DNA of 61,726 bases from the UHGV virus genome UHGV-0342951; one strand, 5' to 3'. Of this stretch, positions 19,022 to 60,200 are shown piece after piece. The first letter of the stretch is position 1; the number at the start of each line of letters is the position of its first letter. The translations under genes were made by a program, and so were the position numbers. Under the pieces are notes generated by a model, which was not told the origin of the DNA, did no database searches, and was given only the letters and a program-made list of their open reading frames with translations. Origin of the DNA: a virus.

Positions 19022-20041
19022 TTATCCGGCGGCTCGCAGTTCTTTCAACCGCACGCGGTATTCATCCGGGGAAATCCGCCGCATTTGGTATAGGCTGTTG
19101 AGTTCAGCCAGGGTAAAAGTGGGTTTATTGACAGAAGAAGTTGCCGGAGTACCGGTCCCACCCGCCACCTGCACAGGCGGCACAGTGGTGACTTTGCCAT
19201 TATCAGGACGGTTCTGTTTGAACTTGTCCACAATGTCGATGACGTACCGCGTATTGCCAGCATAGAACTCCTGCGTGGCAGCCTGGTCACGACTCCGGCT
19301 GCTCAGCCCGTCGGGTTCCTGGAGGTAACGCAGGAAATCCGGGTCATTGAACAGATTGTAGAAATCAGGATGCACTTGCAGGATTTCACTAGCATAACGG
19401 GTTATCTGCGCCTGCTGCGTGGCATTGAGCGCCTCAGCCCGATTACGTTCGATAGTCTCGCGCTGGGCTTTCACCTCAGCCACCACGCCCTCGAGCGGCT
19501 GTTGCAGCATACGCGCCGTCATAACGGCAATACGACGGGCGTCGGCAGGGTCAACCGTCTCCAGCGCATTCAACTCATCGGCACCGTCGAGACTGGCCAG
19601 CATGGCCTGCTGCTTGTTGGCGGCTTCAAACTCGGCGTTACGCTTCTGCGCCTCGGCCAACTGGTTAGCGAGAACATCACGTTCCTGCGCGAGCTGCTGC
19701 ATCTGTTGTTGCTGCGCCATGTACATGTACGGGGCAATAGACGGCTGCTGCACATGCTGCTGCACCGGCTGCTGCACCGGCTGCTGCACCGGCTGCTGCA
19801 CCGGCTGCTGCACAGGCTGCTGCACAGGCTGCTGCACCGGCTGCTGCACCGGCTGCTGCACAGGCTGCTGCACAGGCTGCTGCACAGGCTGCTGCACAGG
19901 CTGCTGCACAGGCTGCTGCTCCATAGCCGCTTCTGTCCGGGCATATTGGTCACGAAAAACCTGTGCCATACCCGGAGTACGGGCAAAGGCGGGAGAGACG
20001 GAAGTGTTGCCGTCGCCGGATGCCATAGGGTTAGTGGACAT
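19022..20041 (-). CDS. Scaffold-like coiled-coil protein with a (QQPV)n repeat; start moved to MSTNPMASGD
   Basis: Contains about 20 tandem QQPV units followed by a long helical Gln/Ala/Glu-rich region. The upstream part of the ORF in the track overlaps the neighbouring small gene. Confidence 0.5.
   Translation of the reverse strand: MSTNPMASGDGNTSVSPAFARTPGMAQVFRDQYARTEAAMEQQPVQQPVQQPVQQPVQQPVQQPVQQPVQQPVQQPVQQPVQQPVQQPVQQPVQQHVQQPSIAPYMYMAQQQQMQQLAQERDVLANQLAEAQKRNAEFEAANKQQAMLASLDGADELNALETVDPADARRIAVMTARMLQQPLEGVVAEVKAQRETIERNRAEALNATQQAQITRYASEILQVHPDFYNLFNDPDFLRYLQEPDGLSSRSRDQAATQEFYAGNTRYVIDIVDKFKQNRPDNGKVTTVPPVQVAGGTGTPATSSVNKPTFTLAELNSLYQMRRISPDEYRVRLKELRAAG
19741..19920 (-). repeat. 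About 15 tandem copies of a 12-nt unit (CGGCTGCTGCAC on the plus strand) encoding (QQPV)n
   Basis: Seen directly. Related 12-36-nt units occur at 5857..5975, 48870..48970, 56690..56880 and 58378..58460. Confidence 0.8.
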
Positions 20042-21824: not shown

Positions 21825-23804
21825 TCAGGCTTCACCTCCTGTGATGTCAGCCGTAACACCAGCACCAGTGGGCGAAGGCGGCGCCGGATTGGGAGCAGAC
21901 CCAGCTCCCGGCATGACCCCCATCGGTGACATCTGCTCCATCTGGCCCAGAACATTGTCGGGAACACCCATAGTACCAAGCAGGGTCTTGAGGCTCCAGG
22001 AGATTACAGGGGCCAGATTGACCGCCTGACCGAGCGCACCGGCTGCGGCACCGACAGTCTGAAGAATCTCCATGGCCGACTGCTTTTCCATCTCCTTCTT
22101 GAGCAGCCCTTCAGCTCCCTTCGTGATGATATGGCTGTCGCCTTTGACCTCCATGTCTTTGGCAAACAACATGTTGGTATTATACAGCAATTCCCCAAGC
22201 GGCTTGAAGACACCGTAGGCGATGTTGTCTGCTGCCGCATGGAGGGCCTTAGTGGCATTGCCTTGCAGCATGGACATGCCACGGAACGTGCGCATGGCCC
22301 CGGAACCAACAGCCTCACCATGGAGTGCCGCAGGGATATTGGTGACACGGTCAGCAAGCTGCATGAACATTTCCATGAGCTGTGCATACGCCGGGATATT
22401 GGAAGGGATATTCGTAAAGCGGAACGCGGGCATATTGTTGTTGCCCAGGTCAGAGTCGGACAAGTAAAGACTCCCGGGCACTATCTGCCCGAGCTCACCC
22501 TTGCCGATATACGACGCGATGCGCCTGTAGTCTGCTTCACAGATAGGCGCCGAAGCATTGGCCGCATTGCGCATGAGGTACATAAGGCTCGCCATGTAAG
22601 CACGTTCGATGTCGCGCAAACGCTGGGCGATACCATCACCGGCAATACGGTCTCCGCCAGTACGATAAAAACTCGCGGTATATACCGGGCGCGTCTGTAT
22701 CTTGGGGTCGGAGAAGACCCTCACCTCGATGACGCGCCCCTGGACCAACGAAATCTGGCAGTTGTAGAAGTCACCATCATCGAGGCCCTGGATGTCATAT
22801 TTTTGCAGTTCCCTGCCAGACATGAGCCCGTAGTGGGTCAGGACCTCGATAGGGCTCACGTTAGAAGACCACAACGCCATATTGCGCTGTCCTTCATCCG
22901 GGGGCCGAGACAACCAGCTCAGGTTGAAGTCTACATTGGGGTCGTCAGCCTGCTTCAAAATGTCCTTGATGTTGGCCGCGATGTAACCGTCGAGCTTGGA
23001 GGCATTCAACAACTCGCGCCGTGTCCAACGGGTACGAGTAAAAATACATGTCCCACGCTGCGTATCAGGACTGTCAGGACTGTAGGCAAAGTCGAAGGGA
23101 CTTATGGCGCGGAATGTCGGAAAGACTTCCGTATCAATACGCGGCTTATTCTTGCCCCACACGAGACGCGGGGCCCGCGTGATATAGGGGCCAGCGAAAA
23201 CCGCAAAAGGATAGATGGGGAACCATTGCAAAAAGTCGGTGAGAGCCCGATTGAAGCCGCCTTCGGCACACTGGTCAGCCAGCAGCATCATCATGGCGTC
23301 GGCAGATTTCTTTGCCTTTTCCGTTTCTTTGAAATGCATCTCACGCTTCTGCTGCCGGATAGCTTCGATGAGCTGGGATGCGTCTTCAAAACTGCCGCTC
23401 TGGAGCTGTGCTTTTATCTCGTTGAAAATTTCATCCTGCGCCACAGGAGAAATATCAGGACGCGGCGTAGGTATCACGGTCCAGGGGAGCGAAGCATCCC
23501 CGGAACTGGTCATGGCGTCATTGAGATAGGAATTGGCGATGTCGGCTTTCAAAGCGGTCAGGTTGATGTAGGCATCGACACCCAGAGCTTCCGCTCGCTC
23601 CTTCGTATCACACGACATGATACCATTCTGCTGGTTCCAGCAGTTCTCAAGTACGGTGCGAAGAGGCTTGCCATTCACAAGCTCAGTAGACTGCCACGAC
23701 ACAGCGCCATTGAACCTGTCCATGACGGCCTCGGCCAGCGGGTCGTGGGATTTCTCCTTCACGTCCTCGATTTCCAGCATCCAGTTGATAGCGTCGCTCA
23801 TCAA
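21825..23804 (-). CDS. Portal protein candidate (about 655 aa)
   Basis: Large ORF directly downstream of the terminase and IscB genes, in the canonical portal position. Its first in-frame ATG overlaps the iscB stop (TGATG). Assigned by size and position only. Confidence 0.5.
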   Translation of the reverse strand: MMSDAINWMLEIEDVKEKSHDPLAEAVMDRFNGAVSWQSTELVNGKPLRTVLENCWNQQNGIMSCDTKERAEALGVDAYINLTALKADIANSYLNDAMTSSGDASLPWTVIPTPRPDISPVAQDEIFNEIKAQLQSGSFEDASQLIEAIRQQKREMHFKETEKAKKSADAMMMLLADQCAEGGFNRALTDFLQWFPIYPFAVFAGPYITRAPRLVWGKNKPRIDTEVFPTFRAISPFDFAYSPDSPDTQRGTCIFTRTRWTRRELLNASKLDGYIAANIKDILKQADDPNVDFNLSWLSRPPDEGQRNMALWSSNVSPIEVLTHYGLMSGRELQKYDIQGLDDGDFYNCQISLVQGRVIEVRVFSDPKIQTRPVYTASFYRTGGDRIAGDGIAQRLRDIERAYMASLMYLMRNAANASAPICEADYRRIASYIGKGELGQIVPGSLYLSDSDLGNNNMPAFRFTNIPSNIPAYAQLMEMFMQLADRVTNIPAALHGEAVGSGAMRTFRGMSMLQGNATKALHAAADNIAYGVFKPLGELLYNTNMLFAKDMEVKGDSHIITKGAEGLLKKEMEKQSAMEILQTVGAAAGALGQAVNLAPVISWSLKTLLGTMGVPDNVLGQMEQMSPMGVMPGAGSAPNPAPPSPTGAGVTADITGGEA

Positions 23805-25069
23805 AAATCGGCGCGGAGACCCCTGCCTTCAGGCAGGGGAGGAAGCGCCGCCTCCTTTCTGAGTTCGGTTAAATAGGTCCTGCGTCTTTCGTGCAGGCGA
23901 AGCTTTTTGAAGCTGATGCCTGCTGATATCCGCGTTCCGTCAAGCTTTCGCACGTCGAAGCTGCCCGTTGATCGACGGCCGAAGATGAAGGCCGTCTCGC
24001 CCTTGCAGGCGACTTTGTCGAAAAGACGAAAGCCCTTCACTTCGTACGGCGCCTGATTGCGCTTGCGAACGCCGCCTTTCAAGATCGAAAGCTTGTGAAT
24101 CTGCCGGTTGTGACGGCGCGTCTGCTTTTGGTAGTAGAAACTGCCGAGCCGATCGGCCTTGAGGTTTCCGGCGATGCAGAAGGCGTCGGCGCAATGAGAT
24201 TTCGCAATCCCGTGCTCGATGCGCGCATGCTTCGTCAGATAGCCGTAGGTATTGCGCACTTCCAGTTCCGGATGCGCCGCCTTCAGTCGATCGAGCACCT
24301 TCCATCGCATGATGCCCATGAAGGCTTCGGCTCTGAACGACGCGCCGCGCTTGATGCTGAGCTTGATCTCGCCGCGGTGAAGCGCCTTGTGGCACGTCTC
24401 GCAGAGCGTGATCAGATTGCCTGGCGAATCGCCGCCGGTGCGCCTGGATTCCAGATGGTGAACGTTGAGCACCGGATCCTTCGACCTGCCGCCGCAGTGC
24501 CGGCAGACATGCCCGTCTCTGAAGAGCACGTATTCGCGGACATTCCAAAAGCCGAGCTGTTCGCCCTGCTGATAGCCTTTTCCGGAAATGTCGGGATTCT
24601 TCAGAAGCTGCATGTCGAAGGATGCCGTTTCGACAGTGATCTTCGTTACGGGAAGAATCCGCAGAACCGCCTCTATGCGCGAAAGATGCGCAGCGATGCG
24701 GTTTTCCACCGACGGGGCAAGCCAGCCTTTGCGCTTGCTGCGGACGCGGTTGTCGAACCGCGGCGCGCGATAGCGCGTTTTGCGGCTGCGGCGTGCGCGC
24801 CGCAAGGCAAGACGGGCTGACAGCAGATCGGTGATGTCCTGCCGGAGTTCGATCTCGGACGCATAGAGTTCGGCCTTTTCCGTCGAAGCGGAAAGACCGA
24901 CATGCTTGTAACCGGCATCAACGCCGAGGCTCACCGGCTGCTTCGATTCGCCGCCGGCAGTCGTGAGCCGAATGGTGAAGGGCGTCTGCCTCGCCACTGC
25001 TGCTTTCTTCTCTTTCAGGAGAATGCGCGCCTTTGCCGCCGAACACGGCATCAGGGGCTTCCCCCGCAT
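23801..25069 (-). CDS. iscB: IscB (OMEGA system RNA-guided nuclease, IS200/IS605-associated): PLMP - RuvC-I - bridge helix - RuvC-II - HNH - RuvC-III
   Basis: N-terminal MRGKPLMPCSAAKARILLKE matches the PLMP motif. LGVDAGYKHVGLSA is RuvC-I, followed by an Arg-rich stretch RRARRSRKTRYRAPRFDNR (bridge helix). The HNH is CRHCGG...VHHLESRRTGGDSPGNLITLCETCHKALH. SHCADAFCIAGN is RuvC-III-like. The ORF in the track begins 21 nt upstream at a TTG. Confidence 0.85.
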   Translation of the reverse strand: MRGKPLMPCSAAKARILLKEKKAAVARQTPFTIRLTTAGGESKQPVSLGVDAGYKHVGLSASTEKAELYASEIELRQDITDLLSARLALRRARRSRKTRYRAPRFDNRVRSKRKGWLAPSVENRIAAHLSRIEAVLRILPVTKITVETASFDMQLLKNPDISGKGYQQGEQLGFWNVREYVLFRDGHVCRHCGGRSKDPVLNVHHLESRRTGGDSPGNLITLCETCHKALHRGEIKLSIKRGASFRAEAFMGIMRWKVLDRLKAAHPELEVRNTYGYLTKHARIEHGIAKSHCADAFCIAGNLKADRLGSFYYQKQTRRHNRQIHKLSILKGGVRKRNQAPYEVKGFRLFDKVACKGETAFIFGRRSTGSFDVRKLDGTRISAGISFKKLRLHERRRTYLTELRKEAALPPLPEGRGLRADF

Positions 25070-25360
25070 GTTCAAAACAAATACTCTCAAGTTTTGTCCC
25101 CTCGGCCCGAAGGCCGGTAATGATCCTTCGCCAATGTTGGAAGGGGTTTCCTGCCGGCGGCACCGCTCCTACCTCTCAGAGCTTTTAACCGCCGACCGCA
25201 GAGCGCGGAACTAGGATCTACATTCCGCGGTGCCTGTGCATTCCCAACCAACGTAGTCCGCATTCCTGCGGACTGAGGCTAGTCAACCAGAGGCTTTCCA
25301 CAAGCCTCGGCCTTCAGGCCGGGGTAGTTGACAACTTTCTCCCTATCAAATCACTCGCCT
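25070..25360 (-). ncRNA. Candidate omegaRNA (guide RNA scaffold) of the IscB element
   Basis: A 290-nt non-coding gap immediately 5' of iscB on the same strand. It is densely packed with GC hairpins (GGCCTGAAGGCC, GAGGCTTGTGGAAAGCCTC, GTCCGCAGGAATGCGGAC, CGCGGAATGTAGATCCTAGTTCCGCG, CCGGCCTTCGGGCCG). IscB omegaRNAs are encoded 5' of the ORF. Confidence 0.4.
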
Positions 25361-25371
25361 GGGCGTCAATC

Positions 25372-26880
25372 TCATACGACGCTGGACAAAGAACTGCGCC
25401 TGCGTATGAGTTCGTCCCTGACGTTTTGCATCGTGGTATCCTTATCCATATTGTCCCCACGCTGGATAAGAAGGGCCGCGTACTGGAGAGCGTCATGCAC
25501 ATGACTCGCATCATTCTTTTCCGGGCTCGGCGTGTACACAGAGCCCATCGTCCCGGAAGCCCGCAACTTGCGGTATCGGTATTCATGCGAGAACCCACGA
25601 ATGAGCATCTGACAGGCCGGGTCGATGAGCAACCCTCCGGCACGATGGTTGAGCATATGCTCCACTGTCTGGATGCGAACCCTGGGATTGTTCGTCAATT
25701 CCGTCACAGCCTTGATACCAGCGTCAGCGAAACGCTGCTTGGGCGTGACGGCCTGCCACGAATCCCGAGTATTGCTCGGGTCGATGGCAGCAACCAGAGG
25801 ATTCGTGCTGTACCGGCCCCGCAGCAGCGGTATCAGCATACCATGCAGGAAATTTTCAAACCCCTCGTTGTCAGCATACAATTCATCCAGCACACACCAG
25901 GTCCCGTTGATGTTTTGCAGGATGACCGCAGCAGGATGGATACCAGACTGGTCCACACCGATGATGATGGGCTGGAAAGGTCGCGGTTCCAACGCTTCCG
26001 ACGCCACATGGATGTTGATGTTGAAATTCGAGTAGACCGGCTTGCCGTCAACGATAGGCACGTCCATCATGCAATACTGGTTGTCGATAATGTCCGTGCG
26101 CCCGGTCTTGAGCAAGGCATCTATCTGGTTACGGTAATACCGCATACCTTGCTGTTCGGGCGTGAAATCGTCCGGGTCCCCTTCTTCTCTGGCACCCAGA
26201 TTGCGCAAATTCTCGGCGTCCGGGTTCACCTCATACGTCACGACACCAGTGACTTCATCAACGTGCTTGAAGGCAGCGGGAGGCTGCCTGAACACTGCCC
26301 AGTTGGGTTGCGGGTTGTGGATGTACTCATCGAGCCAGGAGCCAGGTTCAGGCTGGTTGAAGTCCATGATGGTTCCGCCCCATGAAATACCGCCGAGGTC
26401 CTGGGACGGGTAACGCCCGATACGTCCCGTGACAGCGTTATACACTTCGGGCGAGCAACCCGTGGCTTCATTGAGCCAGGCAAACGTCCAGTTGGCAGAC
26501 CGCAGCTTGGGGGCATCATCAGCCGTCTTGAGGGCCCACAACTCCAGTTCAAGAGAGACCTTGGTACCATCAGGCAGCGGAATGAAATAGAACCCGCGCA
26601 CAGGAGCACCAGAACTGGCAATCGTACCATATTCAGCGGGCAGCAGTTCGATAAGCGACCTGCGCGTGGTGGCGATGAGTTCGGGATAAGACGAACGCAC
26701 GACCCCGACACGGACATATCGTACACCGTCTGGAGCAGGATTCTGGGCACACGCACACGTCAGCACATCTGCAACACAGGCACACGATTTCCCTGACCCA
26801 TAGGGCCCGACAATCATCTTGAGATACTTGTCGCAGTTATGCAGGAGCATACCAGTAGGCGAAGGCACATAGTTGAACAT
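25372..26880 (-). CDS. terL: Terminase large subunit
   Basis: Walker A GPYGSGKS near the N-terminus and a C-terminal nuclease-type segment IIIGVDQSGIHPAAV...D. 502 aa. Followed by a portal-sized gene. Confidence 0.9.
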   Translation of the reverse strand: MFNYVPSPTGMLLHNCDKYLKMIVGPYGSGKSCACVADVLTCACAQNPAPDGVRYVRVGVVRSSYPELIATTRRSLIELLPAEYGTIASSGAPVRGFYFIPLPDGTKVSLELELWALKTADDAPKLRSANWTFAWLNEATGCSPEVYNAVTGRIGRYPSQDLGGISWGGTIMDFNQPEPGSWLDEYIHNPQPNWAVFRQPPAAFKHVDEVTGVVTYEVNPDAENLRNLGAREEGDPDDFTPEQQGMRYYRNQIDALLKTGRTDIIDNQYCMMDVPIVDGKPVYSNFNINIHVASEALEPRPFQPIIIGVDQSGIHPAAVILQNINGTWCVLDELYADNEGFENFLHGMLIPLLRGRYSTNPLVAAIDPSNTRDSWQAVTPKQRFADAGIKAVTELTNNPRVRIQTVEHMLNHRAGGLLIDPACQMLIRGFSHEYRYRKLRASGTMGSVYTPSPEKNDASHVHDALQYAALLIQRGDNMDKDTTMQNVRDELIRRRSSLSSVV

Positions 26881-38299: not shown

Positions 38300-38352
38300 A
38301 TCTTCCTCCTTGTTGTGATGCATAGTAAAGCATAGTAAGTTGCAAAGGTCAA

Positions 38353-38386
38353 CAAAAAACCCTCCCGCACTGGAGAGCGGGAGGGT
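38353..38386 (-). terminator. Rho-independent terminator (GACCCTCCCGC-tctccagt-GCGGGAGGG plus U6) ending the accessory transcript
   Basis: 9-bp GC stem followed by TTTTTT on the minus strand, immediately after the tandem repeat-like units. Confidence 0.55.
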
Positions 38387-38408
38387 CCAGAGAGGTGTGG
38401 CTCACCAG

Positions 38409-38506
38409 GTTTCAACCCACAGTCGCCGCGTCTGAATACGGGAGGGTCTTGTGAGAGGTGTGGCTCACCAGGTTTCAATCCGCAGTCGCCGCGTTCGCCG
38501 ACTGAC
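38409..38506 (-). repeat. Two tandem units (period 61 bp) each carrying a CRISPR type I-C-like repeat segment; one full 35-mer and one truncated 22-mer
   Basis: On the minus strand: GTCAGTCGGCGAACGCGGCGACTGCGGATTGAAACC, then 40 nt, then CGCGGCGACTGTGGGTTGAAACC. Each is followed by the identical TGGTGAGCCACACCTCTC, and then comes the terminator. Confidence 0.5.
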
Positions 38507-38905
38507 TTCACAGGAATGTATCCGGTCCCTGCACCATCCCGGGCGTATCACCCTAGTTTCACCCGGGACAGCGTTCAGGCAATTTTGGTTGTACCCCAGG
38601 GGCGTGCCTTAGTCAACAGTAAGCCGTATCCAGTGTGCCTTTTCTTTTGGCGGGGTCGTCCGTCTACAGATGCCCCTGGGGTACAAAATCAATATTGCAG
38701 CGGCGGCGGAGAAAACATCTCCATCTGTGTCAAGTCGTAAAATCTGGTGCCCCGCCCCATCAGCTCAACCGCAGGCGGTATGGGGCGGGGACTTTAAGTT
38801 TGGCGTTCCAGGGTCGGCGTCCGGTCGCGTACCCCAGAAACATATCGGGTGTGCAGTCACCCGACGACAAACAACACAAAACGACACATCGTCTTGCTGT
38901 TGGCT

Positions 38906-38993
38906 GTTTCAATCCGCACGACCCCTATCCGCCGACTGACTCCGCAGCCGACGGATAGGGGTCGTGCGGATTGCCCCTCCCTAAAGGGAGAGG
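38906..38993 (-). repeat. 87-bp composite element, copy 1 (minus sense): CCTCCCT hairpin, 22-bp arm and a type I-C-like 35-mer that together form a perfect long palindrome
   Basis: Minus strand reads CCTCTCCCTTTAGGGAGGGG-CAATCCGCACGACCCCTATCCG-tcggctgcggagtcagt-CGGATAGGGGTCGTGCGGATTG-AAAC. The first 46 nt after the hairpin are identical to those in copy 2. Confidence 0.55.
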
Positions 38994-39087
38994 TTACGGA
39001 AAAGGATTTCATCGGCTCCGCCGTCTTGTCAACCACTCTTTTCCCTGAAGGGGGAGGTTTCAAACCACAAAGGAATTTTTGATGAAC

Positions 39088-39753: not shown

Positions 39754-39893
39754 GTATGCCTCCTGGTGTTTCCGAGGTATATACAATAACAGCCGCAATA
39801 CATCAAGGGGATAATAAAAATTTTTCCCGGCAGACGTGAATATATTCGAGGGTGGGGGCCTGTCCAGATGGGGTGGGGGGAGGAAGTAATTTG

Positions 39894-39979
39894 TAATAGT
39901 GATGCATAGTAGGAGAGTTACGAAGGTGGAGGGAGGACGTTGGAATAGTAATGCATAGTAGGAAAGTTATGAAGGTGGA
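39894..39979. promoter_or_regulatory. Two 37-bp direct repeats (AATAGTRATGCATAGTAGGARAGTTAYGAAGGTGGAG) in the divergent early control region; operator candidate
   Basis: Copies at 39894..39930 and 39943..39979. The related ATGCATAGTAAAGCATAGTAAG lies at 38317..38340 in the dut promoter region. Confidence 0.4.
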
Positions 39980-41129: not shown

Positions 41130-42210
41130 CGCAGCCCTCCCGCTTCCATGTGGTGCCCCTATGGCTGGGATTCCCGCCTGAGTGATAGGTAAACGATGGA
41201 ACCGCACATGGTGGTGCGCTCCAGTAATCTGGTGCGTCCAGTGTGAACATGTGCGGCAAGTGTCGTGTGGTGTGAAGACACGACACAAAGGGCCGATGTC
41301 TGACAAGCATACTGCGTGTGCGAGTCATACATAGCGGCCCATGTTTGACTAGCACACGGCGTTAAATTATTATGTCGTGTGCTAGTCAAATAATTATTGC
41401 CTACGCAGGAATGCTCACGGAAGTTGTATGACAGGCCGTGTGCGCCTACGCAGAAATGCTCGCGGAAGTTGTACGACATGCCGTGTGCGCCTACGCAGGA
41501 ATGCTCGCGGAAGTCGAAAGGAAAAACAACTTACGTTAAATTTAATAAGTTTTCCTAATAAGAAAATCGTCTTTTTCGTGAGTGAATTTTTACGATTTTT
41601 GCTTGATTTTTACTCACGCGAAAGTTTAGCTCACAGATAAGTGCAGGTGTAAAACTTTTGCGTTAGTGCCAAACTTTCGCGTGAATGCAGCACAAAAACT
41701 GCATGATGCAGGATAAAAATTACGTTGCATTCTAAAATGTAAGGCAAACTCACTCAAAAGTTTGGCACTAACGCAAAAGTTTCACAGTTTGACTTTCGCG
41801 TGAAAATGAACTTTCAATCTTCTATGCGTTTTCCTGCGTAGGCTGCATGTCACCAAACACCAAGGGAGAGATAAAGAAAAAAGTAAATAATAATAATATA
41901 TTATATATTATATATATATTATATATATTCTTCCTTCTCATGTAAGAAATTTCTTTTGATTTTTTCTGCCAATTTTTGGGCTTTTTCTGGGGATTTTTTC
42001 GAGGTGGAGAATGTTATGCGTTTTTCGCTTTTGCACATGTCTTTTGTGCTGTTTTCCGCCTTCCTCGAAATCTTGGCCGTTTTATCTCAGATTGCCGTAA
42101 AACTTTCAAACTTCTATGCGTAACCCTCTCTACCGTCGAAACCTTCTCCACTTCGCCACCTACGCATACAAGTTTTCAACCCTAAAAAGTGTCGAGGGAG
42201 GACACACAAA
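41130..42210. promoter_or_regulatory. 1.1-kb non-coding control block: origin-of-replication candidate and early promoter region
   Basis: Contains a 15-bp perfect inverted repeat (41344..41390), 2.7 iterons of 45 bp (41399..41516), further inverted and direct repeats of TTCGCGTGA and CTTTTGCGTTAGTGCCAAACTTT, a (TA)n tract at 41885..41929 and phased T-tracts at 41950..42080. Confidence 0.45.
41399..41516. repeat. Iteron-like direct repeats (GCCTACGCAGGAATGCTCGCGGAAGTTGTACGACATGCCGTGTGC, 2.7 copies, period 45)
   Basis: Seen directly; an inverted partial copy CCTGCGTAGG lies at about 41835. Confidence 0.8.
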
Positions 42211-45308: not shown

Positions 45309-46247
45309 ATGGCCGAAAACAACGTGAGCTACATGAACAACTGCGTGTATCTGAAGCTGGACATCTCCATCTGGACGGGCAAGGCCCGCCTCACCCCCGA
45401 AGACATCCCGAACGCCGTGGTCGACATGCCGCCCGAGGCGTTGGCTACGCTTGGTTCCAAGCGCATCTTCGACCCGCAGGCGTTGCGCCCCTTCAACACG
45501 GCGAAGACCCGGGCGTTCCGCACCTGCGACCAGTACGGTGTGCGCTGCATGGGCGGCTGGCTGGTGGACAACGGCGTCCTCAACAATCTGACTGCCGAGC
45601 TCGACAAGCTGCGCGGAGAGTTTGAATACAGCGTCGGTACGTTCATCTCCACCTATGAGGATGGGGCATCCAACTGGCTCCAGCAGTTTCCCGCATGGGA
45701 GGGCATCATCCGTGCCGCCTTGCCCGACAGCACGGACATCGGGAAGAAGTTCGCGTTCAGGTACTACGTCCTCAAGGTGCAGACCGAGAACCATGATGCC
45801 CAGGATGCGACTTCCGAGGCCCCGTCAACGGCTGCTGCCACCATCGCCGCCGAGATTGCCCGCATCAGGGAGCAGGTGTTTGGCGATGACCGCACGACGC
45901 CCGTGACCAGCAAGACCTTCTGCTGCCTCGACACCCTCGCAGACCGGTGTGACAACATGTCCTTCGTGCATCCCGGCTTTGCCCATCTGGCCCATCTGCT
46001 CCGCAGCATCGTGGTCAACAGCACCAGCGTGGATGTCGTGCGTGCCTTCCTGACTGGGCTCTCCACGCCCGAGGCCGTTGCCGCCGTGACACAGGAGACC
46101 CGCATCTATGACTTCGAGAAGGACAGCCTCGATATGCCCGAGCCTGCTGCTCCCGTGGAGAAGCCCGAGCCTGCGGCCCCCGTCGTCACCAGCCAGCCCA
46201 CCGCTGCCGACGACAGTCTCGCTGCCCTTCTCGCTGACTTCATTTGA
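45309..46247 (+). CDS. Hypothetical protein (312 aa) with a C-terminal PEPAAPV repeat; possibly the conserved partner of phage CobS/CobT-like modules
   Basis: ORF in the track. Any DUF assignment is from memory only and is not verified. Confidence 0.55.
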   Translation: MAENNVSYMNNCVYLKLDISIWTGKARLTPEDIPNAVVDMPPEALATLGSKRIFDPQALRPFNTAKTRAFRTCDQYGVRCMGGWLVDNGVLNNLTAELDKLRGEFEYSVGTFISTYEDGASNWLQQFPAWEGIIRAALPDSTDIGKKFAFRYYVLKVQTENHDAQDATSEAPSTAAATIAAEIARIREQVFGDDRTTPVTSKTFCCLDTLADRCDNMSFVHPGFAHLAHLLRSIVVNSTSVDVVRAFLTGLSTPEAVAAVTQETRIYDFEKDSLDMPEPAAPVEKPEPAAPVVTSQPTAADDSLAALLADFI

Positions 46248-46250
46248 CAT

Positions 46251-46337
46251 CCTCCCTTCAGGGAGGGCCAATCCGCACGACCCCTATCCGTCGGCTGCGG
46301 AGTCAGTCGGCGGACGGGGGCGACTGTGGATTGAAAC
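46251..46337 (+). repeat. 87-bp composite element, copy 2 (plus sense): CCTCCCT hairpin, 22-bp arm and a type I-C-like 35-mer GTCAGTCGGCGGACGGGGGCGACTGTGGATTGAAAC
   Basis: CCTCCCTTCAGGGAGGG-CCAATCCGCACGACCCCTATCCGTCGGCTGCGGAGTCAGTCGGCGGA... is identical over 46 nt to the reverse complement of copy 1. It ends in GGATTGAAAC 9 nt before the RBS of the vWA gene. Confidence 0.55.
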
Positions 46338-48674: not shown

Positions 48675-49292
48675 ATGAGTATCCAAGAAGACGTACAGAA
48701 CATGCCTCCCATCGAGGTCATTCTCAAAATCATCCTTCCCAAGATGAACAACCGCATCAAGGCGCTGAACGCCGCTGTCCAGGCGCTCCAGGAAGAAGTC
48801 GAAGCGCTGAAGGCTGCGGCTCCGAAGAAGCGCGCGCCGCGCAAAAAGAAGGCCGACGACGAAGCTCCGGCTCCCGCTGCCCAGCCTGCTCCGGCTCCCG
48901 CTGCCCAACCTGCTCCGGCGCCTGTGCCCCAGCCTGCTCCGGCACCTGTGCCCCAGCCTGCTCCGGCGCCCGTGCCCCAGCCGGATACTGTGACCTATCC
49001 TGCCCCTGCGCCTTCTGCCCAGTCTACGGGTACTCTGCTGTGTACCTACGACAGCGAGCAGGATGAGTTCGTGCCGCTGAATATCGAAGGGTGGCCGCTC
49101 ACTGGTAACAACGTCGGACTCGCCTTGTATGCCATGGCTACGATGCGTAACAACATCGGCGACGCTGCGACCATGTCCAATCTGCCCGAGGGATTCATCA
49201 AGTTCGTCACCGATATGACGCCCGAGCAGCGTAAGCAGGTCAACGGCAAGTTCCCTGCGCAGAATCCCGCCTATCAGGAATACTTCGTCTAA
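48675..49292 (+). CDS. Hypothetical protein (205 aa) with a (PAPAAQ/PAPVPQ)n linker
   Basis: ORF in the track; GGAGGG RBS. Confidence 0.5.
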   Translation: MSIQEDVQNMPPIEVILKIILPKMNNRIKALNAAVQALQEEVEALKAAAPKKRAPRKKKADDEAPAPAAQPAPAPAAQPAPAPVPQPAPAPVPQPAPAPVPQPDTVTYPAPAPSAQSTGTLLCTYDSEQDEFVPLNIEGWPLTGNNVGLALYAMATMRNNIGDAATMSNLPEGFIKFVTDMTPEQRKQVNGKFPAQNPAYQEYFV

Positions 49293-55849: not shown

Positions 55850-57047
55850 GACCAATCTTGTTCCTGTCGTCGTCAATAACCAGCCCCCTGTGCTCGCCGA
55901 CGGGCAGTTCTCTGGTGTCGTTGACACCCTGATGGACAACGCTTTCTCCGGCTTCGGCGCCGGGCTGCGTATCCTCAAGCCGGGGAAGATGAGCTTCAAG
56001 CTCATCGAGAATCGTCAGGAAGTCGACATCCCCAACGGTCAGGTCTTTGGCGTCCTTCTGGGTGTGGCGCCTTGCAACTACGCTTCGTGGTATGCCAGAC
56101 AGTATGCGCCCGGGCAGGAACCGTCTCGCCCTGACCTCGTGTGGATGATGCCTACGGCTGACACGTTCCCCGACGCGCTCCCTGCCGAATACCACCAGAA
56201 GGTGAGCGTCAACGGTCAGGAGCGCTGGGGTTTCCGTATCGCCAGACGTACCGTGTGGGCCCTGATGACCAACCAGAACGGGCAGTTCTACCTCGACCTT
56301 GAACGCCCCGTCGTCCTGGACATCACCAGCACCAGCCTCTACGGAAACTCTGACCCCCGCAGCAACAGCTACCGCTGGGGCGGCATCAAGGGCTTCTGCG
56401 ACCGCCACAGCCAGCCCGGTGTTTTCCGCTGCAACCCGGCCATGTTCGTGACCCAGATTATCCTTGACCCGCAGAGCCCCGTCTCCGGCGTCATGCTGTT
56501 CCGTCCCAACCTTGACCAGAACGGCAATCCGTCCTACCTTGACAGCCAGACTTACACGGCTGTCATCCAGACGGCCAGTACCGAGCGTATCGCGGAGATG
56601 CTTCGGGTCAATGAAATCCTGACCTACTCCCCCAATGGTGCCGGGGTTATCCAGCCTGTCCCTGCGGCGGTCAATATCGCCAACGGTGTGCAGCCCATGC
56701 CCCAGCCCATGGCCCAGCCGGTGCAGCAGCCCATGGCCCAGCCTGCGCCTCAGCCGGTACAGCAGCCCGTGGCCCAGCCTGCGCCTCAGCCGGTGCAGCA
56801 GCCCGTGGCCCAGCCGGTGCAGCAGCCTATGGCCCAGCCTGCGCCTCAGCCGGTGCAGCCGGTGCAGCAGCCTGCCCCTGCTGGTATGAATGATATGCTG
56901 TCCCGCGCTGCGGCTGTGCTGGATGGTGCCCCTGCTCCGGCCCCTGCTCCGGCCCCTGCTCCGGCTCCGGCCCCGGCTCAGACCAATGTGAGCAAGGAAG
57001 CGTCTGATGCCCTCAGCGGAATTTTGGCGGATGTTGCTGGTTACTAG
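55842..57047 (+). CDS. Hypothetical protein (about 401 aa; start at MSETNLV) with a C-terminal (QPVQQPVAQPAP)n and (PA)n tail; possible ssDNA-binding or recombination role
   Basis: GGAGAAG RBS. Position between the helicase and primase genes. No motif. Confidence 0.55.
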   Translation: MSETNLVPVVVNNQPPVLADGQFSGVVDTLMDNAFSGFGAGLRILKPGKMSFKLIENRQEVDIPNGQVFGVLLGVAPCNYASWYARQYAPGQEPSRPDLVWMMPTADTFPDALPAEYHQKVSVNGQERWGFRIARRTVWALMTNQNGQFYLDLERPVVLDITSTSLYGNSDPRSNSYRWGGIKGFCDRHSQPGVFRCNPAMFVTQIILDPQSPVSGVMLFRPNLDQNGNPSYLDSQTYTAVIQTASTERIAEMLRVNEILTYSPNGAGVIQPVPAAVNIANGVQPMPQPMAQPVQQPMAQPAPQPVQQPVAQPAPQPVQQPVAQPVQQPMAQPAPQPVQPVQQPAPAGMNDMLSRAAAVLDGAPAPAPAPAPAPAPAPAQTNVSKEASDALSGILADVAGY

Positions 57048-57267: not shown

Positions 57268-60200
57268 ATGCTTCAGCAAACGAGACGTTTTCTTTCCAGT
57301 CTGCTCCCCCCGCTTCCCCCTCGCGAAGACTCTTTCAGTTTCCCCACCTATTTTTCTTTGGGTATCAAAGACGGTTCCCGTCGGCAGAGCCCTTGTCCTG
57401 GCATCGACGACATAATCTCCGAAGGATTTTCTCTGTCGGCACAGGGTTACAACGCCTACTTCGCCCTCGCTTCTTTTGCTGATGGTGCAGCAGGGCGCAG
57501 GCAGGTGAATGCTCGTACCCTCAAAGCCTTCTGGGTTGACCTCGATGTCGGCAAGCAAGGCATCTCCTACCCGACCATCCAGTTCGCAGCTTTTTGCTTG
57601 AACCGTTTCGTGCGCGAGACGGGTCTCAATCCTTCGTGGATTATCCATTCCGGTAAGGGCCTGCACGTCTATTGGGCCCTGTCCGAGCCTGTGCCTGTCG
57701 CCTGGTGGCGCCGTGTCGCTCTCATGTTGGAAAAGGAATGTGCCGCTTTCGACCTCTGGGCAGACCCGGCTTGCACCAAAGACCCGGCTCGTGTGTTGCG
57801 TCTTCCAGGCACCATACATCAAGGTACCGGCAATACTGTATCCGTGGTTCGGGAGACCGGCTGGGTATGGGAGCCGCACAAGTTCGTAGAAGTCATGCTG
57901 ACTTCGATGGCGGAGAAACATCCCGATGCCATCATCAAGCTCAAGGCGGAGCTCAAGCCTACGGTTCCTCAGAACATCGCGCAGATGCCGCAGCCTGTGG
58001 CATTGACCGGCAATGCTCTGTTCTCCGACGGCATGGGGTTCTCATCTTCTGCTCCAGTGGCGAAGTCCGAACCCATAGTGCGTGGCTGCCGTCAGATGCT
58101 CTTTTCCGGTAAGGGGCAAGAGCCGCACTGGTATGCCGCCATGTCCGTGTTCAAGCGCTGTGTGGACGGCAGGGAGTGGGCCCATGCTGTGTCGGCTTTG
58201 GATAAGGAACGCTACAATCCTGCCGACTGTGACGCAAAGTTCGACCATGCCCCTGATGATGCTCCCGCCCGGTGCGACCGTTTCGACAGCTTGAATCCCG
58301 GGGTATGTCCCACATGTCCGCACTGGGGCAAAATCACATCCCCTGTGCAGTTGTGGCGGAAGTCGCAGAATGCCGGTGAAACGTTCGTGCAGCAGCCTGT
58401 GGCCCAGCCTGCGCCTCAGCCGGTGCAGACCATGCCGCAGCCTGCGGCCCAGCCGGTGCAACGCCTCATCATCCCGGAAGTCTTCGACCACCCGCGCATC
58501 GGGTTCCGCAGCAAGCGCTACAGCGTGGATGACAGAGGATGCATCTGGCACAAGTCAGAGAAACAGGATGACGGTTCGTGGGTGACGACAGACCATATCC
58601 TCACCACATCCCAAGTCTATTACATCAAGTCGGAATGGACGTACACGAATGGTGTTTCCGAGCGTTCGCACTGGTTTGAAGTGCGCCACAAGCATGGGGC
58701 TGTCGAACTGATGCGCCTGCCTGCTTCCACGCTGGCGAGCAATCAGAGCCTTATGGCCGCGCTCAATTCTTCCAACATCCTTTCGTGTAACCTTGACATG
58801 TACACCCCTAAAATATTTGCAAGTTTTATGAACAGCTACCTTCGCAGTGTTTTGGAAAACGGGTACAGTACAGAGATTCAGACGCGGGATGTGTTCGGGT
58901 GGACGGATATTACCGACCCCGTGACGAACCAGCCCACGTTGGGTTTTGGCGTGGGCCATGGTGTCATCACAGATACCGGCATCCACGACATGGTATATAA
59001 AGGCTCGGCTGAAAAGCTGGCGAAGAAGGAACTGTCCATCAAGGGCGACCTCGACAAATGGAAGTATGTCCCGCAGATGTACCGCGTCCTCAACCAGCCT
59101 GCTGCCCAGCTCGCCATGTGTCTGTCCTTCGCGGCTCCGCTCATGCACTATGGCCCGGGCGTCGTGCGTTCCGCTGCCTACTCTTTGTGGAGCACCACAT
59201 CCGGCAAGGGCAAGTCGCAGGTGTTGTGCTCTGCTGCATCCATCTGGGGGCATCCTGAAGAGCAGTTCGTGCAGCGCAATTCCTCTGCCGTCATGCGGAT
59301 GCGGAAAATGGCCGTGCTGAACAATCTGCCCGTCTACATGGACGAACTTTCGGACATGAAAGACGAAGACCTCTATGCCCTCGCCTACAGCCTCATGGGC
59401 AATCAGGAGAAGCAGAAGCTCAAGAGTAATGGCGCTGAGATGGTCGACACCGGTTCGTGGTCTACGGTCACGTTCATCACGTCGAACAAGTGCATCAAGG
59501 AAGCCGTTGCCCGCCATGCTGGGGATTCGGAGGCCAGTATCGTGCGCGTGATGGAGTACGAGTGCGACTTCCCCTCGTATGCCGACAAGCCGGAAGTGCA
59601 GGAATATATCCATGCGTGCATGGACGCCTGCAAGACGAACTACGGCCTCGCCGGGCCCGAATTCATCTATCAGGTCTTGAAGCACAGAGACCGGCTGGCG
59701 ACGCTCACGCAGCAGGTAGAGACGTGGTGCCGTAAATACGGCTTCGACAACTCGGAACGCTTCCTGAGCTATCCCTTGGCGATGGCGATGAAGGCCGGGC
59801 GCTGGGCTGTGGAGTATGGTCTGTTGGACTATGACATGGATGCGCTGGAGAACTGGGTCATCAATGTCTTCGTACCGCATAACCGTCGTAGCACCGAAGC
59901 GAATACGTCTGACCCCGTGCATATGCTGACGACGTACCTCATGGAGCGCCAGCTCAATATGCTGGTGGTCAGGGCCAACCATCGTGACAAGACCATGCCT
60001 GAGCAGCCGCATGGGGTACCGGACAAGTACATCGTGAGTCTGCCAAACAATAGGGACATCACTATGCGGGCCGTGCTGGCGACGCAGGAATTGTACATCT
60101 CGCGTTCCGACCTGCACAAATGGCTCAAGGCCCGGAAGCATTCGCCTTCCAATCTCTGGAAGCGTCTCGAAGACAGAGGCATCACAGCCAAAGATACGAC

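Follow-up and report, generated by a model that had tools for sequence, protein, structure and literature searches.

The DNA analysed here (the window) is a stretch of 61,726 nucleotides from the virus genome UHGV-0342951. It contains three full repeat-like units, at 38472-38506 (minus strand), 38906-38940 (minus strand) and 46302-46337 (plus strand), and a shortened repeat, CGCGGCGACTGTGGGTTGAAAC, at 38409-38430 (minus strand), all where an earlier note had placed them. The features of these loci are as follows.

38351..38388, minus strand: intrinsic terminator, which ends the unit-1 small-RNA locus; relatives have one too.
38390..38408, minus strand: second copy of the spacer-like 19-mer.
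38409..38430, minus strand: truncated repeat, 3' half only, GGGTTGAAAC, a local duplication via CGCGG, which is common to repeat and terminator.
38453..38471, minus strand: spacer-like 19-mer, CTGGTGAGCCACACCTCTC, directly after unit 1.
38472..38513, minus strand: unit 1, a 42-nt right-end remnant consisting of CTGTGAA, then GTCAGTCGGCGAACGCGGCGACTG and CGGATTGAAAC.
38514-38516: TTC beside unit 1.
38514..38700, minus strand: conserved structured RNA region upstream of unit 1 (fold z-score -3.85).
38906..39083, minus strand: unit 2, a complete 178-nt copy of a dispersed non-coding element, from ATCAAAAATTCC to GGATTGAAAC.
38906..38940, minus strand: repeat-like arm of unit 2, in the window a perfect complement of the anti-repeat.
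38945..38973, minus strand: anti-repeat arm of the long hairpin of unit 2; the pairing is conserved.
39057..39068, minus strand: partial handle in the left end of unit 2, GTGGTTTGAAAC, with TGAA, the complement of target TTCA.
39084..39086, minus strand: TTC directly 5' of the unit-2 element, kept in empty alleles and equal to the type I-C PAM.
46239..46241, plus strand: TTC directly 5' of the unit-3 insertion.
46242..46337, plus strand: unit 3, a copy of the same ~180-nt element that an internal deletion has shortened on its 5' side.
46251-46266, 46269-46297 and 46302-46337, plus strand: hairpin, anti-repeat and repeat of unit 3.

The full units exceed chance expectation, and so does a 69-nt repeat (94%) containing units 2 and 3. 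Short motifs were not found beyond chance: GGATTGAAAC with at most 1 mismatch gave 7 matches vs 3.6 expected, and GTCAGTCGGCG gave 3 vs 1.9. The repetition noticed earlier between the units is the 19-mer, which has 2 matches in the window (38453-38471 and 38390-38408) vs 0.02 expected by chance; the tandem period, formerly put at 61 bp, was measured as 63 nt. The units had been interpreted as solitary CRISPR repeats acting as an RNA anti-CRISPR or forming a degenerate mini-array, a view that is partly supported. Units 2 and 3 are indeed solitary and intergenic, but a truncated copy lies 63 nt from unit 1, and the description as a degenerate mini-array holds for the local duplication at 38409-38506 and not for the rest. 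Three features had been missed: the units form part of larger repeated elements; in units 2 and 3 they pair, as the 3' arm, with an anti-repeat further upstream, CAATCCGCACGACCCCTATCCGTCGGCTG, in a hairpin of ~30 bp; and another partial handle, GTGGTTTGAAAC, is found at 39057-39068 (minus strand).

Type I-C repeats have a 2-nt 5' overhang, a ~7-bp stem, a short loop and an 11-nt 3' tail, and what Cas5c recognises in them is chiefly the cut site, U22-G23-G24 and the handle (PMC8524198). The I-C-like ends proposed before were borne out by the units, which possess the 2-nt 5' overhang (GT), a stem of 6-9 bp, a loop and an 11-nt (U/C)GGAUUGAAAC tail, in agreement with both the geometry and the Cas5c determinants of PMC8524198. 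The tail feature UGGAUUGAAAC (U22-G23-G24 plus handle) is present in the units, as TGGATTGAAAC in unit 3 and in 42 of 53 unbiased copies and as CGGATTGAAAC in window units 1 and 2, and real I-C arrays carry the same handle and tail. The consensus right end and unit 3 contain a 6-bp stem (CAGTCG paired with CGACTG) and the 11-nt tail, although the I-C geometry is not their minimum-free-energy fold. Compared with available I-C repeats, the units are identical at 25-26 of 35-37 nt, concentrated in the last 12 nt, so the SRU criteria of PMC10651486 probably exclude them. The Desulfovibrio vulgaris repeat that the earlier note had quoted was right in its 3' 12 nt and slightly off in the stem, the true repeat being GTCGCCCCCCACGCGGGGGCGTGGATTGAAAC. 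The stem of the units recurs in L146, a viral contig unrelated to the window, where it has the canonical I-C geometry of 32 nt (2 + 7 bp + 5 + 11), and the unit there lies between a promoter (11/12 matches) and a terminator.

A real CRISPR array was rejected as the source of the units: none with this repeat was found in IMG/VR, 241 million metagenome records or the fetched loci, and the window has no I-C cas homologue by tblastn, as had been claimed. A known RNA family was rejected as well, with HEARO, elsewhere in the window, as the only match at the Rfam gathering threshold. Permissive Rfam scans gave sub-threshold generic hairpins (mraW, a miRNA) and a weak CRISPR-DR9 match on the last 10 nt only, and no omega-RNA family matching the element scaffold. 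None of 56 spacers from two I-C arrays (L147, L148) matched the phage. No cas genes were found in ~1.3 Mb of element-linked DNA, a sample too small to be informative; a Cas5c homologue search returned thousands of matches of at least 80% identity, without usable taxonomy. The literature on CRISPR in Mailhella and D. piger gave no subtype.

The minimum-free-energy fold of unit 1 is itself the I-C geometry, with GT, a stem of 6+2 bp, an AACG loop and the 11-nt tail, and its hairpin is free, unlike the repeat of the full copies. The layout is an 11-nt handle, ~23 nt and then the terminator hairpin; the terminator claimed after unit 1 was indeed there, as a terminator-like hairpin at 38357-38388 followed by a T run. 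Upstream of the structured RNA region, which has no Rfam match, a sigma-70-like promoter is present in relatives (10/12 matches in L131), and none was called in the window's own region. A 42-nt unit shows clean presence and absence after ACATTC between L133 and L134. In alleles without the unit at this place (L004/L128, L130, L134, L006/L133) the 19-mer follows GCGTTC; that it is kept even in repeat-less alleles indicates that it has some other role. No further target of the 19-mer was found in the window at up to 3 mismatches. The window, L001/L129 and L132 share the duplication that made the truncated repeat; L005/L131 lack it.

The unit-2 element aligns over its full length with 25 other copies. 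It is missing, with a clean junction of GGTTC and AGCCAAC, in L001, L005, L129-L132 and L134. Pairing with the anti-repeat is accompanied by compensatory changes, and G.U pairs and U.G variants are valid on the repeat strand only. Unit 2 of the window lacks the CGACTG stem half because its repeat arm has been converted to the perfect complement of the anti-repeat; the canonical GGCGGACGGGGCGACTGTGGATTGAAAC is kept at this arm in the relative L004. The repeat of units 2 and 3 is locked in the anti-repeat hairpin at -57 kcal/mol. As for unit 3, it provides the stop codon of a DUF3150 gene, and its empty alleles in L140 and L142 read GACTTC followed by ATGTAGGAGGTGACACC. Other filled alleles of this site differ in their internal deletions, and in some (L136, L138, L139) the register with the empty site is lost.

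Cumulatively, the 35-mers very probably form the right-end module of a mobile element that is ~180 nt long, encodes no protein and belongs to gut Desulfovibrionaceae. It runs from a left end, ATCAAAAATTCCTTTGTGGTTTGAAAC, through two C-rich hairpins with TTCA loops and the anti-repeat/repeat hairpin to the right end, ...CGACTGTGGATTGAAAC. At least ~140 dispersed copies were listed from Mailhella, Desulfovibrio (including D. piger ATCC 29098), Lawsonia and gut metagenomes, none of which lies in an array, adjoins cas genes or has its own ORF. They derive from a 17-mer scan of species genomes (at least 54 single, non-arrayed copies of Desulfovibrionaceae type with unique 3' flanks) and a metagenome scan sampled by the left end (at least 84 further distinct copies), in which the right end was unaltered in 42 of 53 copies. 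Copies measure 160-199 nt, their ends are sharp, and homology among them ends 2 nt past GAAAC. In the phage lineage the element is present at at least 3 sites, the window having one full copy, one internally deleted copy and one 42-nt remnant, and presence or absence is precise among phages 82-97% identical. Among viruses it was found only in this lineage and a few other viral contigs; GenBank phages yielded neither a relative of the window nor a copy, and the single find in plasmids was a 40-nt right-end remnant in pRGI00788. Mimicry of a host array repeat peculiar to the phage, as suggested before, did not hold up: the units terminate a ~180-nt dispersed Desulfovibrionaceae element with dozens of copies per genome. 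A common genomic REP-like element, which the earlier note had named as an argument against its own reading, was found in part, in that the unit is the end of such an element. We found no described element of this kind in the literature.

No transposase, tnpB or iscB with these ends was found among the at least ~140 copies listed, and an autonomous transposon sharing them was rejected, as ORFs in or upstream of the ~140 listed copies and of solitary left ends proved to be ordinary housekeeping genes; rare autonomous copies may exist beyond those listed. The IscB/HEARO of the window was dismissed as a means of mobilising the element or using its RNA, since the ends of the two bear no relation and the guide of IscB is a 5' one. 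The opposite strand of the left end reads AAAGGAATTTTTGATGAA, and real genes begin at its ATG in ~12 of 40 copies. An ATG past the right end was discarded as a gene start because ORFs there are mostly short.

Four comparisons with a unit-less allele, representing three insertion sites and one register made by a 25-nt deletion, revealed that, where the unit is missing, its downstream sequence comes after TTC, and does so in exact register. Empty alleles read GGTTC followed by AGCCAACAG for unit 2 and GACTTC followed by ATGTAGGAGG for unit 3; for the L133 unit, the allele without insertion reads ACATTC followed by CTGTGGAGC; and the unit-1 guide, after the 25-nt deletion, corresponds to GCGTTC followed by CTGGTGAGCC. 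The junction behind TTC is ambiguous by 0-2 nt, and by 5 nt at the unit-1 site. Consistent with these comparisons, the 5' flank is TTC in 32 of 42 chromosomal copies vs 1.3% expected, and in 69 of 84 copies of the metagenome sample, where the C was fixed by the search pattern. Insertion is thus oriented and 3' of a short fixed motif, with neither inverted repeats nor target duplication. The PAM of type I-C systems is TTC (bioRxiv 10.1101/2024.12.27.630466). The TTC rule could also be the target specificity of a transposase alone.

As insertions sit exactly behind TTC, the I-C motif, the element may steer host CRISPR against genomes that lack it. Since the right end is of I-C type and the insertion is directly 3' of TTC, any transcript reading out of the element would be crRNA-like. 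Such read-out transcripts may serve as guides that aim the host I-C Cascade at uninserted alleles, a reading that we prefer to the others but put forward tentatively. Cas5c would cut the read-out RNA to give the 11-nt handle fused to flanking DNA as a 'spacer', and the uninserted allele, with the flank sequence behind a TTC PAM, would be the target. The inserted allele has ...GAAAC at the PAM position and would be spared. Vacated donor sites, or phage genomes that co-infect without the insertion, might then be attacked by host I-C Cascade-Cas3, and such attack would favour retention and homing of the element. The logic would be that of TnpB/IscB omega RNAs, with host CRISPR as the effector. 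Unit 1, with its free hairpin, ~23 nt and 3' hairpin, would be the likeliest active RNA gene of the phage, in the manner of I-C crlRNAs. A stronger version, to which we give slightly less credence and which we regard as rather doubtful, holds that a protein-less element has swapped TnpB/IscB for host I-C: it would land between a TTC PAM and a protospacer, turn its flank into crRNA and have Cascade-Cas3 destroy uninserted sites, as a gene drive in chromosomes and between phages and a living intermediate between transposon guide and class 1 repeat.

Several observations count against a guide function. Most empty alleles have no PAM or seed escape changes. The repeat is sequestered at -57 kcal/mol in full copies, and the consensus right end does not adopt the I-C geometry as its minimum-free-energy fold. 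The 19-mer is conserved without the repeat, register is lost in L136, L138 and L139, and no sigma-70-like promoter was called in the window region. Moreover, chromosomal self-targeting by type I systems is usually costly.

I-C crlRNAs are single repeat-like units with a 3' hairpin, processed by Cas5c, loaded on Cascade and using a TTC PAM; located within cas operons, they repress a nearby promoter via ~16-bp partial matches and are 48-50 nt long when mature (bioRxiv 10.1101/2024.12.27.630466). Unit 1 resembles them in its 11-nt handle, short spacer-like stretch and 3' hairpin, and its 11 + ~23 nt would lead to an RNA of roughly 48-50 nt. By contrast, it is phage-borne, without a cas operon and without another match in the window, and its PAM-flanked matches are only alternative alleles of its own locus in related phages (~30 of 35 nt). 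CASTs (PMC10369902) are likewise transposons that exploit CRISPR RNA-guided machinery; however, they encode a nuclease-dead effector used for choice of the insertion site, whereas the element here codes for nothing and would draw on host interference once it has inserted.

An RNA anti-CRISPR (Racr) decoy is the role closest to the original proposal: unit 1, and possibly other right ends, would bind Cas5c/Cas7c into dead-end complexes and protect the phage or the element, the downstream sequence being irrelevant. Solitary repeat units between viral genes have been validated as a class, which includes the type I-C RacrIC1 (PMC10651486), and unit 1 shares with RacrIF1, RacrIC1 and other SRUs a single repeat-like unit in the intergenic DNA of a mobile element, without cas and with a small-RNA layout, as does L146. 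Unit 1 combines the I-C geometry with a terminator, to which relatives add a promoter, and L146 is laid out alike; the stem of CAGTCG and CGACTG, never seen in the arrays scanned, might suit a specialised non-array variant. In the SRU tables of PMC10651486 the handle GTGGATTGAAAC occurs ~260 times (141 + 120 string matches on the two strands), and the entries shown with it are typed I-C; the units themselves are absent from the portion of the tables that was searched for them. We nevertheless judge a decoy unlikely. The match to real repeats is one of geometry and the last ~12 nt only, with similarity low beyond (25-26 of 35-37), whereas Racr candidates match the host closely; the unit is here the terminus of a transposable element of which host chromosomes hold dozens of copies; full copies pair it with an anti-repeat; and phage units sit behind a PAM-like TTC, in a register at four sites that a decoy leaves unexplained. 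By the rules of the Racr paper, in which an SRU has no other repeat within 100 bp, unit 1 would be classed as a 'mini-array' (PMC10651486). That a degenerate mini-array, or a scar of recombination between phage and host array, gave rise to the units, with repeats beside former protospacers removing the PAM and allowing phage escape, is highly improbable. Each repeat end does abut, spacer-like, sequence that follows TTC in other alleles, and the order in the window is repeat, 41 nt, truncated repeat; however, no array with this repeat occurs in the collections scanned, the 'spacer' is duplicated rather than unique, and what was inserted has a left end of its own, is 180 nt long and occurs at hundreds of chromosomal sites. 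Virus-borne mini-CRISPR arrays reportedly act in inter-viral conflict, according to 2019 work by Medvedeva et al. and by Faure et al. They too have repeats without cas, adjacent sequence matching close viruses with a PAM, and a need for host Cas, but theirs are foreign spacers acquired between two full repeats, whereas here the 'spacer' is the virus's own flank and the target an allele without the insertion.

The remaining explanations start from transposition. With even less probability than the decoy, the element might be a PATE of IS200/IS605 type that supplies an omega RNA to a TnpB-like nuclease encoded elsewhere; TTC(A) would be the transposase target as well as the TAM, and the resemblance to I-C repeats would be convergent or coincidental. 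Omega RNA-encoding PATEs used in trans have been described (PMC10055086), and this family resembles ours in insertion at a fixed motif, one orientation, subterminal hairpins, the lack of terminal inverted repeats and target duplication (ambiguity of at most 1-2 nt) and a guide taken from the right-end flank: a ~180-nt multi-hairpin scaffold stops at the transposon boundary with the flank in guide position, and the TGAA of the left end complements the target TTCA. In both, the empty site is motif plus guide, so vacant sites would be cut, and the family likewise has RNA-only non-autonomous copies. Here, neither tnpA, tnpB nor iscB shares these ends, and no transposase or tnpB lies in or beside any of the at least ~140 listed copies; there is no Rfam omega-RNA match, and IscB, the sole OMEGA-type nuclease of the window, uses a 5' guide. 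Next to the guide stands a class 1 (type I-C) repeat and not a TnpB scaffold, the motif is the Cascade PAM, the 12-nt identity of the I-C handle and the identical geometry would need chance, and scaffold-less remnants of ~42 nt persist (unit 1, pRGI00788). A plain selfish MITE or REP-like element without an RNA-guided role, its phage copies passengers and unit 1 a scar in a phage sRNA, is about as improbable as the decoy. Such an element would persist because it is near-neutral, restoring a ribosome-binding site and a start codon to the gene in front of which it inserts, and the real gene starts on the other strand of the left end (AAAGGAATTTTTGATGAA, ~12 of 40 copies) speak for this, as do internal deletions that decay copies, the loss of the repeat stem from window unit 2 and the restriction of viral carriage to this lineage and a few other contigs. 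Bacterial MITEs and REP-type repeats such as Correia and ERIC carry expression signals for neighbouring genes. Like them, the element is short, hairpin-rich, intergenic and multicopy and gives neighbours a ribosome-binding site or start codon; unlike them, it lacks terminal inverted repeats, is strictly oriented to its TTC target and has a CRISPR-repeat terminus. Four things would go unexplained: the exact I-C handle and geometry, the survival of the right end in truncated copies, an RNA gene with promoter, terminator and the same unit in the unrelated virus L146, and the second TTC coincidence, made by a deletion.

The descriptive result is useful even if guidance of host Cascade by the element fails as an explanation. 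It defines a new repeat family that abounds in gut Desulfovibrionaceae and occurs in D. piger ATCC 29098, which is cultivable. The family has sharp ends, a TTC-A target (insertion falling before the A) that is often at start codons, and a ribosome-binding site and ATG of its own. Surveys of solitary repeats should screen for such elements before anti-CRISPR calls are made. If the element does guide host Cascade, it would be the first known case of a non-coding transposon that enlists a class 1 CRISPR effector of its host for retention and homing, and would extend the TnpB/IscB principle to Cascade. Some unexplained solitary repeats in phages and genomes would then be accounted for, and bacterial CRISPR systems would routinely carry transposon-derived 'self' guides. 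The same reading predicts allele-specific warfare between near-identical gut phages.

The window is the genome of a tailed phage of ~57% GC. Its gene products include the portal and the large terminase subunit, together with a dUTPase, an Rv2179c-like exonuclease, DUF3150, an AAA_5 ATPase, a CobT/VWA-like protein and a family A DNA polymerase. The positions given in the earlier note are exact for the three units GTCAGTCGGCG...GGATTGAAAC, for the truncated one and for the duplicated 19-mer, and the terminator it described after the unit block corresponds to a terminator-like hairpin. Its 61-nt tandem period is in fact 63 nt, and the D. vulgaris repeat needs correction to GTCGCCCCCCACGCGGGGGCGTGGATTGAAAC, the reading of the fetched locus. 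The units and other features of the window are located as follows.

38472-38513, minus strand: unit 1
38906-39083, minus strand: unit 2
46242-46337, plus strand: unit 3
38409-38430, minus strand: truncated unit
38453-38471 and 38390-38408: the 19-mer, directly after unit 1 and after the truncated unit
38357-38388: terminator-like hairpin
39057-39068: partial handle GTGGTTTGAAAC
38330-38345, minus strand: motif CTACTATGCATCAC, directly upstream of the dUTPase ribosome-binding site
39876-39973, plus strand: 49-nt direct repeat, each copy containing the reverse complement of CTACTATGCATCAC; this motif is a possible promoter or operator specific to the phage
41399-41533: a 45-nt unit, GCCTACGCAGGAATGCTCACGGAAGTTGTATGACAGGCCGTGTGC, repeated three times in tandem where leftward and rightward gene blocks meet; these may be iterons or operator repeats
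23801-25332, minus strand: IscB gene (23801-25090, 429 aa) and its HEARO omega RNA (25117-25332, Rfam 141 bits), an OMEGA-type RNA-guided nuclease element within the phage packaging module, between the portal (21825-23804) and large terminase (25372-26880) genes
5816-6042, 19695-19958, 48864-49025, 56688-56992 and 58357-58469: long repeats with a 12-nt period, in frame within several large ORFs of either strand, where they encode Q/P/A/V-rich tracts; dominant in repeat-finder output

Units 2 and 3 each have a ~30-bp hairpin in which the 35-mer forms the 3' arm and the anti-repeat CAATCCGCACGACCCCTATCCGTCGGCTG the 5' arm, and a small hairpin (CCTCCC-TTCA-GGGAGG) precedes this long one; both hairpins, like the partial handle, had been missed before. 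The two loci have a 69-nt repeat in common (94%). To find related copies, one genome per species (596 Gb) was scanned with the 3' 17-mer CGACTGYGGATTGAAAC, for which roughly 140 chance matches are expected. About 55 of the 122 matches listed resemble chance matches; the others are dispersed single copies of two families, and no arrays were found among the matches listed. Family 1 (at least 54 copies) has the entire anti-repeat/repeat module in common and occupies Desulfovibrionaceae, including several Mailhella species, Desulfovibrio spp. such as D. piger ATCC 29098, and one Lawsonia MAG; Methylobacter holds diverged copies. Family 2 (at least 13 copies of ~183 nt, Clostridia) has only the 3' 17-mer in common with family 1 and is otherwise unrelated. 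Its copies, from Oscillospiraceae, Ruminococcus, Lachnospiraceae and Blautia (loci L014, L022, L024, L035, L036, L047, L051, L053, L054, L061, L073, L098 and L109), have the 3' end CGACTGTGGATTGAAAC as in family 1 and a 5' flank of TTC or TTT, usually lie directly upstream of a ribosome-binding site, and are 98-100% identical inside a single MAG.

An all-against-all comparison revealed that copy-to-copy homology starts ~180-190 nt upstream and ends 2 nt past GAAAC, and when 26 full copies, unit 2 of the window among them, are aligned, the mean column identity is 87%. That the 17-mer does not vary among the genomes sampled first is a product of the search pattern. Metagenomes were scanned next, with sampling from the left end, which leaves the right end unbiased. 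This second scan yielded at least 84 further distinct copies, mostly of 160-199 nt. CGACTGTGGATTGAAAC was unaltered in 42 of 53 left-end-sampled copies, and AT directly followed the right end in 46 of the 53. Left ends lacking a right end, when followed outward, led to truncations and then to ordinary genes. No conserved ORF was found inside or adjoining the element in ~140 listed copies, indicating that it is a protein-less, MITE/PATE-like repeat. The earlier description of I-C-like solitary repeats holds, but not their interpretation as phage-specific mimics of a host repeat. Units 2 and 3 are no more than copies of a repeat found in host chromosomes.

Among about ten IMG/VR contigs 82-97% identical to the window, the presence or absence of units is clean. 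Unit 2 is missing from seven relatives, where the empty site GGTTC/AGCCAACAGC corresponds to the filled site GGTTC-ATCAAAAATT...GGATTGAAAC-AGCCAACAGC. Unit 3 is missing from L140 and L142 (empty site GACTTC/ATGTAGGAGGTGACACC), and its filled alleles have differing internal deletions with the right end kept in all. At the unit-1 locus, a 42-nt unit is inserted after ACATTC in L133 as compared with L134, and window-type alleles are set apart from L133 by the loss of 25 nt, which brings the repeat up against CTGGTGAGCC; this sequence follows GCGTTC in every allele without a unit at that position. Four comparisons, of which three represent independent insertions, give one and the same register: the base that follows ...GAAAC when the site is filled follows TTC when it is empty. 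The chromosomal 5' flanks are TTC in 32 of 42 cases against 1.3% expected (the rest being CTC 5, TTT 2, TCC 1, GTC 1 and TCA 1), and those of listed left-end-sampled copies, in which the search pattern dictates the last C, are TTC in 69, GTC in 8 and CTC in 7. A short right-end remnant, GCGGAGTCAGTCGGCGGATGGGGTGACTGTGGATTGAAAC, with TTC again a few bases upstream, occurs in plasmid pRGI00788 (HG796367.1; L269 313-352), which is circular, measures 2.9 kb and comes from a gut bacterium that is uncultured.

In the consensus structure from RNAalifold there are three hairpins: hairpin 1 (CCCCC-TTCA-GGGGG), hairpin 2 (CCCTCCC-TTCA-GGGAGGGG) and the long anti-repeat/repeat hairpin. Near-constant G.U pairs at three positions, many C-to-U variants that keep U.G pairing and a compensatory CG-to-UA change at one pair are valid only for the strand ending in GGATTGAAAC, indicating that this is the functional single strand, as RNA or as transposition-intermediate DNA. 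On the opposite strand, the left end reads AAAGGAATTTTTGATGAA, a Shine-Dalgarno sequence followed by ATG, and exactly this ATG is the start of a long ORF of recognisable kind in ~12 of 40 copies; by N-terminal sequence, we take these ORFs to resemble UvrA, HypE, IspH, RNase H and NUDIX proteins. The element often lies on a start codon, which it rebuilds, so that insertion would be nearly neutral. What this strand supplies is AAAGGAATTTTTG-ATG-AA, where real genes start (e.g. L023, L046, L088, L096, L100, L123 and L124); at the other junction, an ATG made with the flank opens an 11-codon ORF, MFQSTVAPSAD, within the right end. Directly upstream of hairpin 1, the left end holds TGAA, the complement of the target TTCA. 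Target-recognition sequences of IS200/IS605 elements occupy an equivalent position, and by this analogy TGAA may hint at the mobilising enzyme.

A type I-C repeat is built of an overhang (2 nt), a stem (7 bp), a loop (5 nt) and a tail (11 nt); recognition by Cas5c rests chiefly on the cut site, on U22-G23-G24 and on the handle, and altered loops or 5' overhangs are tolerated (PMC8524198). The I-C PAM is TTC (bioRxiv 10.1101/2024.12.27.630466). The units are laid out as GT, CAGTCG...CGACTG and (U/C)GGAUUGAAAC. Their handle is the 3' end of two real I-C loci that we fetched, one from D. vulgaris pDV1 (32-nt repeat) and one from an uncharacterised assembly (37-nt repeat), and the minimum-free-energy structure of unit 1 has I-C geometry whether the unit is folded by itself or in context. 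L146 (IMGVR_UViG_3300029362_000553), a viral contig that is unrelated and low in GC, carries a solitary 32-nt repeat, GTCAGTCGCATTTTGCGACTGTGGATTGAAAC, with the stem of the units and a perfect 2/7/5/11 I-C layout, at a locus that is a clean candidate gene for an RNA anti-CRISPR (Racr) or a CRISPR-RNA-like RNA (crlRNA):

L146, 2995-3198: near-consensus promoter (11/12 matches), ~85-nt leader, GTCAGTCGCATTTTGCGACTGTGGATTGAAAC, 13 nt, strong terminator

Because of the geometry, the common handle, the unit-1 fold, L146 and the agreement of TTC with the I-C PAM, we consider the link to type I-C probably real. There are caveats, however: overall identity to real I-C repeats is 25-26 of 35-37, the I-C fold is not the minimum-free-energy structure of the consensus right end, and the right end of full copies is buried in a -57 kcal/mol hairpin. 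In unit 2 of the window, the repeat has become a perfect palindrome and its stem is lost. What is new here is a mobile element with a type I-C-type repeat terminus that inserts in register with the I-C PAM; no account of such an element was found in the searchable literature. It is akin to known kinds, namely solitary repeat units and PATE/omega-RNA elements, and its being conceptually new is doubtful.

Unit 1 comprises the 11-nt handle, 23 nt and then the terminator hairpin. In relatives, a promoter with 10/12 matches lies ~215 nt upstream, and none was called at the window's own locus. Upstream of unit 1 (window ~38514-38700, minus strand; also L128-L134) we observed a conserved, strongly structured region of ~190 nt with a 13-bp stem, GUACCCCAGGGGC/GCCCCUGGGGUAC, and a hairpin, GUCCCGGG...CCCGGGAU (fold z-score -3.85), which matches no Rfam family. 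Its presence with or without the repeat unit points to a phage small RNA. Between this locus and the exonuclease terminator, L129 (~2990-3430) and L128 contain a small ORF ending ...EMFSPPPLQY; only its last ~40 nt remain in the window (38700-38735), where they split the -35 from the -10 box of the promoter seen in L130 and L131.

A Racr-type decoy seems unlikely: unit 1 and L146 are compatible with it, but the TTC register and the chromosomal abundance are not accounted for, and the units match real repeats poorly. Start-codon rebuilding and copy decay would also suit a plain MITE, an improbable reading that leaves the CRISPR features without explanation. Both the scaffold and the target rule would follow if the element were a PATE serving a trans-acting TnpB-like nuclease. 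We give this little credence, as no autonomous partner was found among ~140 listed copies, there is no Rfam match, remnants without the scaffold persist (unit 1, plasmid pRGI00788) and likeness to I-C would have to be put down to coincidence. A scar of recombination with a host array is highly improbable, because the element has its own left end and no such array was found in IMG/VR or the metagenome scans.

In the IS200/IS605 scheme, the guide is the right-end flank and the vacant site is motif plus guide (PMC10055086). The same scheme fits here, except that a class 1 repeat takes the place of the guide-proximal scaffold and the Cascade PAM that of the motif. I-C crlRNAs, of 48-50 nt, have a single repeat-like unit and a 3' hairpin, are processed by Cas5c and are loaded in Cascade (bioRxiv 10.1101/2024.12.27.630466). 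We tentatively prefer a model, itself short of an even chance, in which transcripts reading out of the element direct a presumed host Cascade-Cas3 to alleles that lack the insertion. It is weakened by the lack of escape mutations in most empty alleles, by some filled unit-3 alleles being out of register with the empty site, and by retention of the 19-mer after unit 1 even in alleles without the repeat. Under the guide model, transcription would pass out through the right end, and the read-out transcript would be processed by Cas5c and loaded in Cascade for interference. With ...GAAAC in place of the PAM, the inserted allele would escape, and interference would fall on donor sites vacated in chromosomes and, in mixed phage infection, on rival genomes.
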